A DNA stretch of 64,000 nucleotides from Eledone cirrhosa. Taxonomy: Eukaryota. Position numbers and translations under genes: made by a program. The stretch is taken from contig OZ024745.1 of assembly GCA_964016885.1 (NCBI GenBank), positions 54,932,001 through 54,996,000 on the forward strand, read 5' to 3'. Each line of letters starts with the position of its first letter. Position 1 is the first letter of the stretch. Positions 11,886-59,534 of the stretch are shown here, one piece after another. The notes beneath the pieces are model-generated. The model was given only the letters and a program-made list of their open reading frames with translations, made no database searches and was not told where the DNA came from.

Positions 11886-12368
11886 TAAACGGAATAAATG
11901 AAACGAAATTTCATTTCCCACTCTTAGTACGGCTGTTACTTAAATATAAGTACGTACACGTACATAAATATATGTATACAGACGTACAGTAGTATGTATA
12001 TATATATATACATACATGCACACATATATATATGTACGTATGGATTCACCGAACATTTATTATAATGCTCGGTGTGTTTGTAAACAAACATCCCGTATTA
12101 AGCCGCAGTGTCCAGCAACCATCGTTGCTCGTTTGTTCAACACTGACAAAGGAACGCTGTACTAGTTTCAAGCTTATTAGCTATCGTCAGCAACGTATAC
12201 CTTCCTGCCAGATTGTTGAACGTATATACTTACCTTATGCATATTAACAGCTGAGATATAAATGGGAAATGAAATTTCGTTTCATTTTTTCCGTTTATCG
12301 TTTTCGGTGCACCCGGTCCATTAACCCACTCGATATGCAAATTGGGCTTCTCAGCGGTTAATATGCAT

Positions 12369-12370
<2 letters not shown>
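11886..12370 (-). mobile_element. Diverged copy of the ~460-bp octamer+hammerhead repeat; octamer-bearing segment 12262-12370 is inverted
   Basis: Homologous to 17890-18720 (tttgttcaacactgac...tactagtttcaagct...); ATGCAAAT at 12335-12342. Confidence 0.8.
12154..12196 (-). ncRNA. Minimal type I hammerhead ribozyme
   Basis: Minus: acgttg CTGACGA t-agc-taataa-gct-t GAAA ctag TA cagcgt. Confidence 0.85.
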
Positions 12371-14314
<1,944 letters not shown>

Positions 14315-16128: not shown

Positions 16129-16475
16129 AAACTCTAGAGACAGATGGATATATTAACACAGAAAATTTCTTTCAAAGAGATCCATTTCCTAAAATAAATA
16201 TTCTCCATCGAGTTCGTTTGCCCGGTAACAGGAAATACGATACGACCCCTATTTCCTTTAAATTACACTCTACGGTCTCAAAAGAGACTTTTATATAAAA
16301 AATATATTTGCGATATCATAACTAAAAAAAGTAGAAAATACTATAATTATGCATGCACCTAGAACGCATTCACTGATATATTTTGACTCAGTCTATCTTA
16401 TAGGGTTTTATTTGAAACTATAGGTGTAAAATAAATATTCTGTTCATTTCTTTTTTTATGTTTTTTCACTGGTCA

Positions 16476-17030
16476 CTTTAACTTAATTGTTTAAGCGTCA
16501 GTCATACAAAAGTGAGTTACAAACGAAACGAAATTTAATTTCGTTTCGTTATTTGTTTTTATCGTCTCCGTTGAACCGGTACTTACTCACACTCTATGCA
16601 AATTAGTCTGCCCACTACTAATTATCATAGAAAAAGCATATAACGATATGTGCTTTTACGATTCTCTAGAGAGGCCGGAAGATAGGTAAATATTGCTGAT
16701 GAGTTGTAACAACAACGAAACTAGTTCAATATTCCTTGTCTGGCTTTCTGGAGAATAGAGGAAAGGTGTTTCCTCAAAAACCAGTATGACTCTAAAAACC
16801 GGTTTGTCTGTGTGTTTACATACAGAATAGCTGGCCACTCACAGTAAAGTGACCAGTGAAAAAACTTGGTACATCTACATATGTATACGTGTGTGTATTC
16901 ATATACATACTAGTATTTCAGTATACATATATGGATGTACATCTTTAACTTAATTGTTTAAGCGTCAGTCATACAAAAGTGAGTTACAAACGAAACGAAA
17001 TTTAATTTCGTTTCGTTATTTGTTTTTATA
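16476..17030 (+). mobile_element. ~467-bp non-coding unit plus ~85-bp terminal direct repeat, with octamer and hammerhead (retrozyme/pLTR-like)
   Basis: 16476-16562 repeated at 16943-17029; hairpin aacgaaacgaaatttaatttcgtttcgtt; ATGCAAAT at 16596-16603; hammerhead at 16689-16733. Confidence 0.8.
16689..16733 (+). ncRNA. Minimal type I hammerhead ribozyme, fully canonical
   Basis: aatattg CTGATGA gttgt-aaca-acaac GAAA ctag TT caatatt: 7-bp helix I, 5-bp helix II, palindromic helix III, GUU cleavage triplet. Confidence 0.9.
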
Positions 17031-17437
17031 TATATATATATATATATATATCATGTCTCACTCGTTTCACCCTATTTTACTTGTCCCAATAACTTTATTT
17101 GTTATTGCTCGCACTAACTAGAGGTACATTATTTTTAAAGCGATGAAATACCAATGAAAGTTGGAAGATCACTGATGAAGGACTAATTTTATTCATATAT
17201 AGCCTATGCGCAGCGCTCCATTTTTCTCATATATATATATGTATATATATACAATACATAAACAGACAAAGCCTTAAGCGATATCCCGACCAACTCCATC
17301 TCACTCAACAAACATTAGGATATACTTAAGTATTATCCCAATTTAGTGTTTGGGGTGCTAACTAACTTATCAGTATTTCGTGAAAAATTGGTTGTATTAT
17401 TTTATATGAGACATTATTAAATAAATATCTCTTTCCT

Positions 17438-17561
17438 TCCAGACGGCCGTTTCGTTATAAGATTTCTACAATTTGGGATAAATAAGTTCCAGGTTATGTA
17501 GAAACTTGTATATAATCCGTAGTTTTATACACAAGCGGGCTCTTATAAACTCATCAGTGGA
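17438..17561 (-). ncRNA. Type I hammerhead with ~97-nt branched stem II
   Basis: Minus: tcca CTGATGA gtttataaga...[two hairpins]...tcttataac GAAA cggccg TC tgga. Confidence 0.8.
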
Positions 17562-17614
17562 TGCCCAAATTAATATCGATATAAGAATTATATTGACATT
17601 AATAGAATGGTGAT

Positions 17615-17690
<76 letters not shown>

Positions 17691-17803
17691 TATATATATA
17701 AAATATATATATGTATGTATATATATATATATATGTATATATATATAAATGTAAGTATGTATGTACACGTACATACATATATGTATACAGATGTACAGTA
17801 GCA

Positions 17804-17871
<68 letters not shown>

Positions 17872-18020
17872 CAGGTACACATATATATATGTACGTATCA
17901 GTTTAGCGAACGTTTATTATAACGTTCGCTTTGTCCGTTTGTAAACAAACGGACAGCCTGATTTATGCCGTACGGTGTTAAGGCAACCACGTCACCTTTT
18001 TGTTCAACACTGACACAGGA

Positions 18021-18062
18021 ACGATGTACTAGTTTCAAGCTTGTTAGCTATCGTCAGCTCAG
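18021..18062 (-). ncRNA. Hammerhead motif with intact core but damaged helix I
   Basis: Minus: ctgag CTGACGA tagctaacaagctt GAAA ctag TA catcgt. Confidence 0.6.
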
Positions 18063-18479
18063 TATACCCTTCTGCCAGATGGTTGAACGGTCGAAAGTAT
18101 ATAGTTTCCTTATGAAAATTAACGGCTGAGCAGCCCAATTTGCATATCGAGTGAGTTCAGTCAGCCAGGCGCACCAAAAACGATAAATTGGAATAGAATG
18201 AAACGAAATTTAATTTCTCACTCTTAGTACGACACTTACTTAAATGTAAGTATATATGTACACGTACATACATATATGTATACATACGTACAGTAGCATG
18301 CATATATATATATATATATATATATACAGACAGGCACACATATATATATGTACGTATCAATTTAGCGAACGTTTATTATAACGTTCGCTTTGTCCGTTTG
18401 TAAACAAACGGACACCCTGATTTGTGCCGTATGGTGTTAAGGCAACCACGTCACCTTTTTGTTCAACACTGACACAGGA

Positions 18480-18522
18480 ACGATGTACTAGTTTCAAGCT
18501 TGTTAGCTATCGTCAGCACCGT
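18480..18522 (-). ncRNA. Minimal type I hammerhead ribozyme
   Basis: Minus: acggtg CTGACGA t-agc-taacaa-gct-t GAAA ctag TA catcgt. Confidence 0.85.
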
Positions 18523-18641
18523 ATACCCTTCTGCCAGATGGTTGAACGTTCGAAAGTATATACTTTCCTTATGAAAATTAACGGCTGAGCAGCCTAATTT
18601 GCATATCGAGTGAGTTCAGTCGGCCAGGCGCACCGATAACG

Positions 18642-18824
18642 ATAAATTGGAATAGAATGAAACGAAATTTAATTTCTCACTCTTAGTACGGCACTTACTT
18701 AAATGTAAGTATGTATGTACACGTCTGTATACATATATGTATGTACGTGTACATACATACTTACATTTAAGTAAGTGCCGTACTAAGAGTGAGAAATTAA
18801 ATTTCGTTTCATTCTATTCCAATT

Positions 18825-18827
<3 letters not shown>
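18642..18827. repeat. Perfect 83-bp inverted repeat (20-bp spacer) capping the tandem dimer
   Basis: 18642-18724 is the reverse complement of 18745-18827; followed by (TA)n. Confidence 0.9.
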
Positions 18828-18887: not shown

Positions 18888-19048
18888 ATAACAAAGGAAT
18901 TGTGGTAAGGAACCAGATGGACCATAACGCACCAGAGTAATCAATACTTAGGGTAGTAGAGTGGGAAATAGGAAAAAGTATGACCCCGACAGAGTCCAGA
19001 AATAGCAGTCGAAACGGCTTGAGCTCTGCCGTCGGGGTCATACATTTT

Positions 19049-19115: not shown

Positions 19116-20496
19116 TGTCGTAGAACACTGGAAGGTACTATCCGTAGTGGTCGAGCACTCAGTCCATGGGACGAAGATTCCCGGACTTCCACGCGGGAAT
19201 ATACCGCGACGGTGGACTGACTTTATCGAGCCATAAAAGTGGTCACGACTTCGACCGGTTTAAAAAAGACTTAGCATCTACCTTCAATGAGTTAAGACTT
19301 AGAATAACAGTAGCTACCAACCTCTCTAGCCTTAGACATTAATTTAGACCTTCGCGCACACACCTACAGACACTTCCATAAGCTTAACGAAGACTCAATT
19401 ACATTCACAATGACAGATGCCACCCTCCCACTGTTTTTAGAAACTTCGTAATTAATATCTGTACTAGAATCTCAAACCTCTCTTCTAATAAGGCTATCAT
19501 AAACAGAGCGCCACACGGCGTTAGCTAACAGCGGCTTCTCGCAACCTATCACTTACTCTCCCACTAACAACAATAGCAATAAGAAAACAAAGCGTAACAA
19601 TAGACGAACTATCCGGTTCCCTACTCTCTTCTCATTTAACGTTAAAACCAATGTATGCAAAAAATATCTAGCCCTCTTAGATAGACACTTTTCCATAGGT
19701 CAAATATACCGCTCCATCTTTAACCGACACAAAGTAAAATTAGGATACTCATGCGCTAAGAACATGAAGGCCCACATCACCAACAGCCCTAAGAGCAACA
19801 CCCCACCAGGATGCTCTTGCCGTAAGCTCGAAGCTTGTCCCCTTCAACAGCAATGCAACACACCCGCTGTAGTTTATGAAGCTGTGGTCACTTCCAACCG
19901 CCAAATCAACCACAGGAGGTCAAATCCTATGTGGGTATGGCGGAGACCGATTTAAGGAAAGCTTCCTGAACCACCAGTCGACCTTTAGGTACCCGGACAG
20001 ACGTTCATCCAGGAAACTCGCGAGCCTCGTATGGTGGCTCAAGAACTCAAGTATAGACTACTCCATTTAATAGAAAGCCATCACTAAGTCCAAGCCATAC
20101 GCAAAGGTAAATCCGTCGTGTGGACTATGTATTGATGAACGAATAAATATTCTAAAGAGATTACGCAATAGCGATTGCCTACGCTCAATAATTGAATTCT
20201 TCACACGTTGTCACGACATCTGGAAACACCTCTTACATAACTACAAAGCTCCGATTGAATTCAACAACATCCTAATTTTTCTTATCAACTAGAAACTTTC
20301 GGACTTTCGCAGTTATCTCCCTTACACCTCTCGCACGCAATTTAGTATTGCCTGAGGGAAATGACCGTTTCTGCGCGTGCGCGTTCGTACGGTTGTCCTT
20401 CCTGTTCCGTATAACCATGTCCATTACGAGCTGAGGATCCGCTAAGGTGAAACAATTGTTCTCGGTATGGTGAACTAACTGTTGTGTAACCACTTC
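19116..20496 (+). mobile_element. 5'-truncated, frameshifted Penelope-like element (Naiad-type RT end, linker, GIY-YIG, 3' pLTR)
   Basis: Manual translation: GIYRDGGL (19196-19219, cf. GLYRDDGL), LDINLDL, YIH...HPP, FNRHKVKLGYSC, CSC...CPL...C..PAVVYEAVV, SYVGMAET, CGLCIDE...FFTRC; hammerhead in 3' UTR; (TA)n flanks. Confidence 0.9.
20427..20464 (+). ncRNA. Minimal type I hammerhead in Penelope pLTR
   Basis: cgag CTGAGGA t-cc-gctaa-gg-t GAAA caattg TT ctcg. Confidence 0.75.
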
Positions 20497-23457
20497 TATA
20501 TATACATATATATACACACATACACACACAAACACACACATATATATATGTATATATATCATATAGATATAGATATATAATATTAACATTTGGTTAGCTT
20601 TCAAATTAAAAACTGTAACGATAATTGACAGTGAAGTAGAGTTAAAGCTAAAATTCAACCTAACTGGAAAGACATAACATTTATCCCGCATAAGATATGT
20701 GATAAAATGGCTAAAACAACGTGAGTTGAAAAATTTTCCCCGTAGATTCAATCATAGAGAACTAAAATTAAAATAATTACACTAGAAGACGATCTACGAA
20801 CACGCGCATCGAAGCATAGAGTAAATATGCTCAATGGTTTAATCAATAGATTGATCGCTGTTGCTATCATATACCGAAATACCGTTATCGTATCAACTTC
20901 GTCATCGAGGCATTATACTGTTCTGAAAAGACTTGTACATCGTTATAGCAGATACCTTTCGGTTTGCAAATAGTACAAAACTCACAAATAGTAAATGAAT
21001 GTATGCACAAGATTGTAGGAACCGCTATATAAGATTATTGAGCAACATGTCTACATTTCTGATGTAACCTCTAGTGATTTCCACTTTTCTTCATATTGGA
21101 GCCTCTGTAATTGGATGTAACGACAATGAAGTGAAGGACATAGTTTATCATTGATTAGTTTCGTGATGTGGACAGTATATTCTATACCGAGTGTCTTGAG
21201 AAAAACCAATATTGAATTGGTAAATATATGTTGACAGAGGAGAGAATTACAGAAGAAATCTCTATTCATGAACTCAAAACCATTATTTTATCGCTTACTA
21301 GGTTTACATTTTAACGGCAAATACAACGCTACTATATCTTAGAAAAAGAAAGTAAACCAAGAATACAGAAGTAAATTACTGACTTTATCGAATTGACAGG
21401 AATAAAAAATAAATCTTGCAAAAGTGGAATTTGAGCTCAGCAACATGATGCAACTTAGCTGCATTTCTGCCATTTTCATTTCTGTAACATACAACGCTTT
21501 TTTTTCTTTGTTTTCTGATTTCTGAAAACAATCTGATTAGTATATTTCTAATTAAAGATAAATTCCTGTAAATTAAATCAGACTATATAGAATTGAGAAA
21601 CTCGAGTGAATATGGAATTTGATTTGAAGTCTATATGTTAGGATTTCGAATATGCGGTTGGGCTTTTGTTGTGTTTAAGCATAAATCACGCCATTTCATA
21701 TAAATTCATATCATCTAGGTTTTTATAATTTGAAAATAGATATTCAACGTAAAAAAATCTCACTTATTTAACGGAAATTACTCATACTATGCAATAATTT
21801 GGCAACAATATTAGACATCTGATTTCGTCCCCTAGGAATGTCAGGTCCCACATCACGTTATTATGCTAGGTCACCTCTGTGGGTATTATTAAGAGAGAAA
21901 GTTATTATTAAGACAATGATACAGCCACAAACCCTGCAAAAGAATGAATATGGGTAAATACTCATTTTGAGCTGTTAAACAGATCGACGTGTATCAAGTA
22001 AAAACCGCAACGCATAAAATAATTTATATCATTCGCCGTTCAGACTTTTACTATCTTAGATTAGTAATTCACTCTATAGCGACTGGAAAATGGAAGTCAA
22101 AATTGAGCTCTTTGGGATTTGAACACAGTATGCAGAGAACTGGAACAACCATATGAAGTTATTTTGACAAGTCTTCGCGGGGTTAGAATCTTTTTACTAA
22201 GAGCAATTTACTTTAACCTGAGCTGAGGTAACTACATATAACATATTAATTAGCTGAAACTTCAGGCAACTTTGGTATCTCGATTAAAGCAATTTCCTAT
22301 CAAGTTCAACGTTACAAAATCATACAAACCGTAACTATACATTTGAATAGCACGAAGTAAACCCAAGCTAACCACACAATAAGAAAGCAGTCTGTTTCTG
22401 AGCGCTTGATCGTTTATATATAACAGCCAAATCGGTTTCAGATCACACCTTCATTTGGTAGGAAATAAATAAAAATAATATGAATTGGAAACAAAATACA
22501 TGGAAATTATTTAACTATCATAGCCGCGAAGCATTTGATAGTATGTCTGCTAGAGGAGTACCAACTTATAGACATAAGCCTACAGTAACGCAACAAATCC
22601 AGGGTAATCAAAATGTGAACTCCTTTGTATCAAGGTCTACTAAAACAGTGCTGATCTTAAATACCGATAACAGCTTAGCTGATCGATAATCTAAATATAT
22701 AATGGATTAATGCTCAGAGAAACCAGACAATATATATACATTACACATCACTTCTCATACTTTATTCTAAGAGTTATCATTCTAATAGCACTGCCTGAAA
22801 TATCAAATATGTCACATTGTGAACACTTTCTATTATTTGTTGAGGTATACTATCCTATCTGCGCTACTGCCTCACTTCCAATATATTTTGTTAGTCAGTT
22901 GCTATATATTTATATTAGTCTTCCAAGCCTGCAATATAATGAATTAAAAATCATTGATTTACAATGTTCATGCATTAAAAAGGGTAAATCGTATTCCAAA
23001 TGTGTTTTAAATCTAAAAAGAAAACAAAAGTGAAAAGAAAACTCTAACCAAATGATTTAATGCTGATAATATATTCATATCAATTTTGTTTTCGAAAACT
23101 GAAGACTGTGATTATGCGAGTGAATCGTCTCCGTAAAGTTAGATTGTGAATCATTATATGTCCCTATATGCATCATTTTCTTTTACTGTAGAATATCTTC
23201 GCTGCCTTTATCTGAGGCATTTTCCTTGATTGTTGTTAGGTTGAAACAGAGCTGTGGGATACAGTTCTACTAATTGCATGGATAATCTTGATTAATTAAA
23301 GATTATAATGTTTCTATTTACAAATCGGAGATTCTACTTTATGATAGATTTGTTTACTATGCGAAAAACCAGAGTTTCATCCCATTCAGAATGACAAAGA
23401 TCCATGCAGGTGTAGATTACTTTGCTTTTCAGTTAATATTATATTTATTGTCTTTAT

Positions 23458-55707: not shown

Positions 55708-56082
55708 GAATTTTGGCAATCGGAATTGCGTAATCTCCTTAGAATATTATCCTTTACGCAATAAAATCAAGTAATGAAATTTTCTCACGTTGTTCACATG
55801 TCTGGAAACACCTCTTGCATAACTACAAAACTCCGGATTGAACAACAACAGCATTCTAATTTTCTAATCAACTCGAACATTTCATTCCGGACATTCGCAG
55901 TTATCTCACTCAAACCTTTCGCCCGTGGTTTTGTATCGCTTGGGTGAAGTGACCGTTTCTGCGCATGCGCGTCATACGGTTGTTCTTCCTGTTCCGTATA
56001 ACCATTACCAGTTCGAGCTGAAGATCCGCTTAAGGTGAAACAATTGTTCTCGGTATGGTGAACTAACTGTTGTGTTAATACT
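55708..56082 (+). mobile_element. 3' fragment of the Naiad-type family at 19116-20496, with short 5' inversion
   Basis: 55775-56075 aligns to 20190-20488; 55715-55748 is an inverted copy of ~20147-20180. Confidence 0.85.
56014..56052 (+). ncRNA. Minimal type I hammerhead in Penelope pLTR
   Basis: cgag CTGAAGA t-cc-gcttaa-gg-t GAAA caattg TT ctcg; differs from the 20427 copy only at variable N7 and loop 2. Confidence 0.75.
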
Positions 56083-56153
56083 TATAGTAATACATCTATA
56101 TATATGAGAGTGTTGAAGTTTGTTTGAAGTATTGTTGAATAATAAAATTGATT

Positions 56154-57347: not shown

Positions 57348-57808
57348 ATATATATATATATATATATATATAGGAGTAAGTAAGACCCCGACGGCTGAGC
57401 TCAAGCCGTTTCGACGGCTAATTCTGTACTGAATGAATAATCAGTTCTGGTATTTAAATAGCCGAACTTGTCAAGGGGCAATTCCATATATGGTCAAAGA
57501 GATAATCACCAGGATTGGTCATCCCACAAGGTAGTAGTAATTCTGCGATGGCAAGTTGGTGGGGGAGGTAGCCAAACCTGCCAGTAGGAGAAAAGGGGAG
57601 AGGGGGCGGAGTAGACCCACTCATGCGTTGGTGGTGCCAGCTACAGCTGGGTGTGAGGTCAAAGAGGACGCCGGGGAGAGGGAGGGGGGGGAGGTCAAAA
57701 CGGTAAGTAGAACGATGAAAATGTAAAACTGTAAAAAGTACTGAGAGAGAAAAGAAATATAAGCAGAATCTGGTTACTAAGACTTAATTCTCTCGCTATT
57801 GCTAGGCT

Positions 57809-58740: not shown

Positions 58741-59298
58741 TTATAGGCTACCGCCCGGGTCATTATGGGGTTTGAGGGCGAGGTAAGTCCTACGTAATCG
58801 GTGTTTACATGCAGTAACCAGTTCATCTTTCTTGTTAAGGAGTTGGTCCGTCGAAAACAGCATTTGTAATGTTTCCTCCGAGCATAAATTGCACGGACGG
58901 CGTCCTCCCGTGTAGGAATTGGCTCTGGACAGTAATTTCCAAGTGAGATCATAGTTGATGTTGTTGTCCTTGAGGTCCCATATGTGGCCCGAAAGTGTAG
59001 TGGCGTGACGCCGGGCCGGGTTTCGGAAGGTATGTCTGTGTTGGTATAGCCGGGTCTTGAAGTCGCATGCGGTCAATCCTATATAAGCTTTGTTGGAGGT
59101 GTCCGTGCTCACGTTGCACTGGTAGATCCCATTACGGTCTCTGCATCTGTTATCGAGGGGGAAACCTGATCTATCAGGACAGTTGCACCTCCTGGTCGGC
59201 TCTCCACTGCTATTTGGGTTGTTTCTTCCATCGGGGTTGAGTTTTTTGTTGTTGGAGGAGACGATGTTTTGTGCGAAGTTAGGTGTTGTGCTGTAAGA
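58741..59298 (-). pseudogene. GIY-YIG endonuclease domain of a Penelope-like retroelement (open frame, N-terminally truncated)
   Basis: Frame extends upstream of the listed ORF without stops: SYSTTPN...CNCPDRSGFPLDNRC...GIYQCNV...AYIGLT..DFKTRLYQH..TF...TTLS.HIW.LK...CNLCSEE...LLNKKDELVTACKH. Confidence 0.9.
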
Positions 59299-59351
59299 TT
59301 GAGTACTTTGGTGCGTTATGGTCCACCTGGTTCCTTACCACTTTTCCTTCG

Positions 59352-59394
<43 letters not shown>

Positions 59395-59534
59395 GGAACG
59401 AGTAGGACCCCGACGGGTGTGCTCAAGCCGTTTCGACGGCTAATTCTGGACTCATATTACCCACTCTACTACCCTAAGTATTGAGTACTTTGGTGCGTTA
59501 TGGTCCATCTGGTTCCTTACCACATTTCCTTCGT

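Follow-up and report, generated by a model that had tools for sequence, protein, structure and literature searches.

The stretch of Eledone cirrhosa DNA analysed here (64,000 nucleotides, hereafter the window) carries copies of a ~460-bp tandem unit which combines an octamer and a hammerhead ribozyme. This raises the question of what kind of element the unit is, whether it brings its own promoter and which enzyme moves it; the original prediction was a self-promoting, self-cleaving retroelement, probably mobilised by neighbouring Penelope-like elements (PLEs). We class the units as genuine non-LTR retrozymes, or non-autonomous PLEs, likely with a built-in snRNA-type promoter. Our preferred explanation, to which we give a probability of roughly 0.65, is a high-copy, protein-free retrozyme with Penelope-type ends which likely transcribes itself from that internal promoter.

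Copies of the unit in the window

Family A is represented by an insertion at 16476–17029 on the forward strand, with 1.19 units of 467 bp (GC content of the unit 35%). It consists of one full 467-bp unit and an 87-bp repeat of the unit start, and thus contains one hammerhead only (core at 16696). Its 3′ end is at unit position 87 and runs into (TA)n, while a short inverted piece of a family A unit (unit positions 370–390) is found at its 5′ junction (16460–16480, reverse strand). The following features were found on its forward strand: a perfect hairpin in the 3′ tail (16522–16550, with a second occurrence at 16989–17017), which is a candidate recognition signal for the reverse transcriptase; a 15-nt octamer element (16595–16609, octamer at 16596–16603) resembling host U6, U6atac and MRP promoters; a TATA-like box (16636–16644), 41–43 nt past the octamer start; a start site predicted near 16669 from host geometry; and a minimal type I hammerhead (minimal part 16689–16733) within an extended stem I (16661–16756), with cleavage predicted after 16726 at a GUU triplet.

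The family B copy is a two-armed insertion in which both arms end in (TA)n. The long arm (17746–18769, reverse strand) contains 2.24 units with a period of 459 bp as determined by TRF, and its 3′ end is at unit position 9; the inverted short arm with the tail (18761–18827, forward strand) is 67 bp long and has its 3′ end at unit position 67. On the reverse strand, the long arm contains a promoter-like block at 18556–18605 (octamer 18597–18604, TCAGC 18584–18588, TATA 18556–18564), a second octamer at 18138–18145, a hammerhead core at 18486–18516 with a GUA triplet and a U.U at the base of stem II, and a second core at 18027–18057, in which the alignment shows the 5′ strand of stem I to be damaged. 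The motifs and coordinates originally given for the A and B copies were confirmed (A end 17029, B arm 17746–18769), except that for B these covered the minus arm and had left out the inverted 67-bp arm. The spacing of 75–85 bp between octamer and hammerhead was also borne out, at 85 nt in A and 74 nt in B from octamer end to stem I.

Copy C (11886–12370) is also two-armed. One arm (11886–12262, reverse strand) contains the TATA box (12222–12230), the hammerhead (12160–12190) and the tailed 3′ end at 11886; the inverted arm (12263–12370, forward strand) contains the hairpin and the octamer (12335–12342) and is broken by another repeat. The octamer and hammerhead of C are therefore on opposite arms and strands, and the same order of modules, which had been proposed for all copies, holds for A and B and not for C. 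The A (467 bp) and B (459 bp) units were described as strongly diverged, which they are; their relationship is, however, not confined to the conserved modules, as they are colinear homologues with 50–54% identity over the whole unit, and A is colinear with B and C at the same identity in an alignment of nine units. As originally observed, there was no ORF of ≥ 90 aa at the units except for frames through (TA)n. Pfam named none of six ORFs compared from the window, and a search of the window with Rfam gave no match at gathering score.

The window also contains hammerhead elements of other families at 1820–2161, 55767–56102 and 63114 (reverse strand), including an inverted pair (1899/2082) and a pLTR (56018). 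A two-armed inverted element (12369–12497/14185–14314 and 13215–13476/13794–14055) surrounds long (TA)n runs at 12369–14314.

The hammerheads of A, B and C are of minimal type I, with CUGAyGA, a stem II of 4–5 bp, GAAA and a palindromic stem III of two pairs, and their stem I extends for ~20–30 pairs, with the ttcct..gtc segment forming its 3′ strand. For copy A, the hammerhead within its extended stem I gave a folding z of −4.95 (stem III palindromic, 2 bp). In the alignment of nine units we read five compensatory pair changes among A, A2-4, B and C, three in stem II and two in stem I. The deviations from this arrangement are the U.U at the base of stem II in B and C and the GUU triplet in A. 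Circular monomers were predicted to fold with z values of −16.5 and −10.3. It should be noted that 8 of 9 predicted retrozyme dimers from Xenopus were uncleaved in vitro according to the available text of Li et al. 2026 (10.64898/2026.07.22.740005), so that ribozyme activity is not to be assumed here.

Copy number, insertion ends and the template

We searched the 3.0 Gb genome which holds the window for an octamer-N70-100-hammerhead core pattern and found 33,421 matches, in comparison to 7 for the reversed control pattern; hammerhead cores ending GAAACTAGT numbered 40,666, with 28 for the control. The combination of octamer and hammerhead is thus not due to chance. Units range from 424 to 484 bp and were found on many contigs, in arrays of 2 to 30 units. 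The exact family A hammerhead had 5,072 matches in the genome, and the family A insertion at least 112 BLAST matches, most of which were 99–100% identical. These searches provide the genome-wide check of copy number and tandem arrangement that had been proposed for the units, and high copy number, tandem arrays and covarying hammerhead stems together uphold the identification as a retrozyme.

The pattern also surfaced a distant family D (438 bp; 4,034 first-look candidates), in which a 33-bp block with the octamer and TCAGT is present three times (L153:1200–1900) and up to about seven times in another locus (L172). A second retrozyme family, E, is without the octamer and has units of 310–311 bp, of which we found 17,440 in comparison to 0 for the control; two-armed arrays of this family are found at L096:2361–2981, L085:2420–2760 and G000:C1:1239881–1244260. 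Two degenerate loci (L103:1508–1650 and L105, reverse strand) contain a strong octamer element 104–107 nt before a hammerhead-like core and possibly belong to an older family.

Insertion ends were compared in 59 family A loci, a non-random sample drawn from the top BLAST matches and, on contig C1, from the first hits of the pattern search. The visible 3′ ends were found at unit positions 84–90 (48 of 95) or 9–21 (42 of 95), together accounting for 90 of the 95, and 30 of 35 two-armed insertions had one 3′ end of each kind, leaving a tail of ~70 bp on one arm. Family B 3′ ends likewise cluster at two unit positions, 9 and 67. The insertion target is (TA)n, the flanks of which would mask any target-site duplication. 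The 5′ ends of arms were variable with no fixed 5′ head, and Rfam gave no match at gathering score to a tRNA, 5S or 7SL RNA from which the head of a classical SINE would derive, so that the units do not look like classical SINEs. The insertions thus have a Penelope-type anatomy of variable 5′ ends, two fixed 3′ ends and a one-sided tail; the available text of Craig et al. 2021 describes the inverted arm and one-sided tail for PLEs, and (TA)n is given as the target of the Hydra and Naiad PLE clades in the source text available to us.

Long arrays show higher-order patterns of local expansion, as would be seen if the units were a satellite which had spread through recombination of DNA or as extrachromosomal circles and in which the likeness to a ribozyme was incidental. 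We consider this explanation barely credible, as the fixed 3′ and variable 5′ ends, the asymmetry of the tail, the targeting of (TA)n and the covariation of stems would all be unexpected under it. Dimer, trimer and higher periodicities were seen in the long arrays at L119, C1:56.39 Mb and C5:39.86 Mb and show local expansion or multimer templates.

The 5′ ends also bear on which RNA was copied. Only 1 of 95 was ≤ 5 nt from the cleavage site, against an expectation of 2.2, and of the 95 arms 79 extend > 30 nt past a cleavage site, which excludes the cleaved linear monomer as template and indicates that the template was a circle or an uncleaved multimer; a multimer transcript explains the read-through as well as a circle does. 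Private variants were common to both arms of an insertion (L118, and 20 units at C1:56.39 Mb), indicating that each event drew on a single lineage of template. A-to-I editing was considered as a possible mark of an RNA stage. Among the 35 youngest loci there were 11 private A>G changes and 2 T>C (p 0.013, for a post hoc choice of loci and with the changes clustered in few insertions); across all 59 loci the counts were 15 to 19, or 8 to 9 by locus. In the arrays L118 and L119, A>G clusters were common to all or to alternate units. A-to-I editing of the template is possible for these two arrays, without support across all loci.

If the ends are of Penelope type, it must be considered whether the units are simply parts of a PLE. 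The window contains a 5′-truncated, broken PLE at 19116–20499 (forward strand), assigned to the Hydra clade, with a CxCX5C linker and its own pLTR. It is not part of the unit, and we rule it out as parent of the units because its pLTR and its hammerhead (at 20431) are different from theirs. The idea that Penelope-type enzymes mobilise the units is therefore backed by the anatomy of the tail and inversion, and the part assigned to the neighbouring PLE is not. A two-armed 3′-end fragment of an abundant Hydra-clade element, also not part of the unit, is present at 18891–19043 in the same (TA)n hot spot. For this abundant element we found 62,806 first-look candidates, ORFs of up to about 800 aa and a tail of ~80 nt; further pieces in the window are at 59294–59533, 57379–57430 and 58744–59334, and in its hammerhead core U3:A8 appears to replace C3:G8. 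The best named relatives of one of the PLE reverse transcriptases of this genome are from Argonauta hians and Octopus bimaculoides, which fits an octopod host but is weak evidence for it.

Comparison of the unit 3′ end to 30 copies of the abundant Hydra-clade family gave no BLAST match outside low-complexity DNA, and the only resemblance to the Hydra-clade tail seen by eye was a short ATTTC..TTCGTTAT. No homology was seen by eye to about a dozen other PLE 3′ ends, which represent a minority of the families in the genome, and none of the PLEs examined was an autonomous element whose pLTR is homologous to the units. The units could still be solo or tandem pLTRs left by 5′-truncated copies of an autonomous PLE, without an independent RNA cycle: their anatomy is identical to that of PLEs, and Xenopus retrozymes are related to pLTRs in the available text of Li et al. 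2026. We nevertheless judge this very unlikely, given the tens of thousands of units and the other sequences present at the PLE 3′ ends examined. Furthermore, not one of 193 arms (some of them from overlapping loci and so counted repeatedly) was joined to a PLE ORF, though many span several whole units, so that the case in which the unit is always an ordinary pLTR was not found. Eight of the 193 arm rows had been flagged, of which 5 were separated from the ORF by (TA)n and 3 were matches inside the retrozyme. It should also be noted that retrocopies of U6atac were found in (TA)n or fused to hammerhead elements (L124, L125, L127 and L130, with family D in L127), which suggests that PLE enzymes copy small RNAs in trans.

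Host snRNA promoters and the promoter-like block

The reference set for the promoter comparison consisted of five host Pol III type-3 promoters (three distinct U6, U6atac and RNase MRP). All five contain TATG(C/G)(A/T)AAT(T/G)AG at −76 to −78 and a TATA box 46–48 nt past the octamer start, and a distal element near −260 is present in 3 of the 5 genes, with a variant in MRP. The 15 host U1, U2, U5 and RNase P promoters are without the octamer element (best score ≤ 2.9) and have YCAGT near −56, in most cases with AATTA 33 nt before it, and TATA 23–28 nt after it. In this animal the promoter of the RNase P RNA gene is of the U1/U2 type and that of RNase MRP of the U6 type (L177, L131), suggesting that Pol II transcribes RNase P RNA. 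Another Hydra-clade PLE (L017:2210–2858, reverse strand) has the distal element of host snRNA genes, TTACCTCCCTTGA, in its pLTR, together with a U3:A8-type hammerhead. As a by-product, these comparisons yield likely octopod promoter elements of the U6 and U1 classes, which would be useful for guide-RNA expression.

We built a 15-nt matrix from the five host Pol III promoters only, which scored 16.4 bits in family A, 20.7 in B, 16.7 in C and 14.6 in D, in comparison to 13.5–20.6 for the host promoters when each was left out in turn. The background comprised 573,288 positions after BLAST masking. Scores of ≥ 14.6 bits were reached at 3 of these positions, two of which were loci preselected for octamer and hammerhead, while the 12 background octamers which had not been preselected scored ≤ 14.0 bits. 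The match of families A–D (14.6–20.7 bits) thus reaches beyond the octamer itself. When hammerhead cores were found independently of the octamer, every absence of the octamer in the 20 regions read was due to 5′ truncation, a deletion or point changes private to the copy; in one family C array it was mutated in 8 of 9 units.

The block is not a complete copy of either host class. The distance from octamer to TATA is 41–43 nt in all four families (A–D), shorter than the 46–48 nt of the host, and at host spacing TATA is absent in A, B and D. The host distal element is absent from A–D, and the ttcct segment was ruled out as such an element since it lies at the wrong distance. As in host Pol II genes, YCAG is found 26–27 nt before TATA in B, C and D, and not in A; scores for the Pol II core (YCAGT) were 3.7 for B, 6.0 for C, 8.5 for D and −6.3 for A (host leave-one-out 4.6–15.7), and the AATTA element 33 nt before YCAGT had negative scores in B, C and D. 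The shorter spacing, the lack of YCAG in A and the lack of a distal element mean that the block fits neither class in full.

On this evidence the units likely carry a built-in snRNA-type promoter and would drive their own transcription. As to the polymerase, we lean slightly towards Pol II, hold Pol III to be a tentative second choice and think the lack of any working promoter improbable; the shorter TATA spacing and the T5–T6 runs inside most units make Pol II somewhat likelier than Pol III, and the position of YCAG in B, C and D and the Pol II snRNA promoter of newt satellite 2 also speak for Pol II. A possible if less favoured alternative is that the same retroelement has a true U6-type (type 3) promoter and is read by Pol III, which would terminate leakily at T-runs and so give dimer-length RNA. 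Its strength is that the 15-nt element matches the host Pol III class only, strongly so in B (20.7 bits), where the unit in the window contains only T4, and that in A, C and D a T5 or T6 run coincides with the tailed 3′ end or is close to it. These runs are, however, copied through by nearly all insertions of A, C and D and are lacking from the B 3′ end, the spacing to TATA is 4–5 nt shorter than in 5/5 host genes, and the distal element is absent.

A promoter-less retrozyme, transcribed by read-through from its flanks in line with the usual assumption of the field, is another alternative, in which the octamer and TATA would be a relic of an ancestral pLTR or part of an RNA structure. The octamer is indeed paired in the predicted fold of both monomers, and when A is compared with B/C, the run of conserved positions at the octamer does not significantly exceed the others in length (permutation p about 0.11). 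The promoter idea of the original prediction is therefore supported by the match to host U6, U6atac and MRP promoters and not by conservation, as the octamer does not stand significantly above other conserved blocks. A review (PMC7761336) also states, in its available text, that retrozymes seem to be without promoters. We nonetheless regard the promoter-less alternative as rather unlikely, because the element extends to a host-specific 15-mer and is triplicated in D, and because the independent family E has another host snRNA geometry at the same place before its hammerhead.

In two diverged subfamilies of E, AATT, YCAGY and TATA are found at host U1/U2 spacing, the AATTA-like element reading AATT(T), and in subfamily E1 the distal element of the host is also present, at the distance it has in U1. 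The composite has a background fraction of 1e−4 to 5e−4 per position, which is modest evidence when taken alone. We give about an even chance to the possibility that octopod retrozymes captured host external snRNA promoters at least twice (the U6/MRP type in A–D and the U1/U2 type in E) and kept them by circular permutation, in which ribozyme cleavage and rolling reverse transcription would make an internal promoter out of an upstream one. If this is true, the genome would contain > 50,000 self-promoting circular-RNA genes.

Under our preferred explanation, a self-transcribing retrozyme with Penelope-type ends, the cycle may be as follows. Start sites predicted by host geometry fall 8–27 nt before the hammerhead core in every family; transcription would start there and continue into the next unit, so that two hammerheads, probably paired via their palindromic stem III, would release a monomer of 424–484 nt, which a host ligase may close into a circle. 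A Penelope-like reverse transcriptase, likely of the Hydra clade, would then use cut (TA)n as primer, start at either of two fixed positions near the tail hairpin and copy round the circle from both target strands. As copying continues beyond the cleavage site, the promoter upstream would come to lie inside the new insertion, and the element would escape the loss of its external promoter that retrotransposition usually brings. Some long arrays may later have grown locally by unequal exchange.

Comparison with known systems

Non-LTR retrozymes are known from coral, mussel and axolotl, and PLEs have been proposed as their mobilisers, in the available text of Cervera and de la Pena 2020 (PMC7229834). 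Like these metazoan elements, the units described here are short, of low GC content (< 50%), without ORFs or LTRs, arranged in tandem with a type I hammerhead and dispersed in thousands of copies. Their length of 424–484 bp is at or just above the 150–450 bp of non-LTR retrozymes. With respect to consecutive hammerheads, copy A in the window has one and copy B two, of which one is damaged. Unlike known metazoan retrozymes, the mobilisation by PLEs is visible in the insertion ends and each unit contains an element of host snRNA promoters. In the sources available to us, the mobilisation of retrozymes by PLEs has so far rested on co-occurrence and pLTR similarity; the available text of Li et al. 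2026 (10.64898/2026.07.22.740005) links vertebrate retrozymes to pLTRs and contains no promoter analysis. In the literature searched, which included few subscription papers and no Repbase, there was no cephalopod retrozyme and no retrozyme promoter matched to host U6 or MRP. No cephalopod case was present in the main texts of the retrozyme papers searched, although the supplement of PMC7229834 may list some, and ribozymes go unmentioned in the available part of a 2026 Octopus vulgaris repeat annotation.

Non-autonomous PLEs and pLTRs (Hydra, Neptune, Naiad and MRC1 of Chlamydomonas), as described in the available text of Craig et al. 2021, share with the units 5′ truncation, partial tandems, inverted arms, a one-sided tail, the (TA)n target and a minimal hammerhead. 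The tail is 58–74 bp here in comparison to 30–40 in that description of PLEs, and the units differ from PLEs in their snRNA-like promoter and in having no homology to the autonomous 3′ ends examined. SINEU (Kojima 2015, PMC4494074) and a schistosome satellite with a Pol III promoter are similar in being non-autonomous with links to small-RNA genes; however, SINEU has an snRNA body and no promoter, whereas the unit has a promoter and no snRNA body. With the host promoters themselves the units share the 15-nt octamer element and TATA of the Pol III class and, in B, C and D, the YCAG of the Pol II class. They differ from host snRNA promoters in that A–D are without AATTA at −89 and in that the block is inside a mobile unit.

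This genome bears both on how animal retrozymes are transcribed and on which enzyme mobilises them, with young, near-identical families which have PLE-diagnostic ends and a promoter hypothesis which makes exact predictions (start site, mutations and polymerase). If the promoter is indeed carried, this would show how an external promoter may be kept through retrotransposition. The closest parallel is newt satellite 2, which, as far as its available descriptions go, is likewise a tandem repeat, the unit of which combines a hammerhead of short stem III with an internal promoter of the snRNA type. That promoter reportedly includes an octamer. According to the sentence citing it in PMC2220036, it is read by Pol II. 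Unlike in the vertebrate newt satellite 2, the element here matches the host Pol III class and has a shorter TATA spacing, two promoter classes are present in separate families and PLE-type ends are documented. If octopod retrozymes did capture host promoters at least twice, as considered above, then built-in snRNA promoters would be a design that animal retrozymes use generally, whereas so far newt satellite 2 is the only case described.
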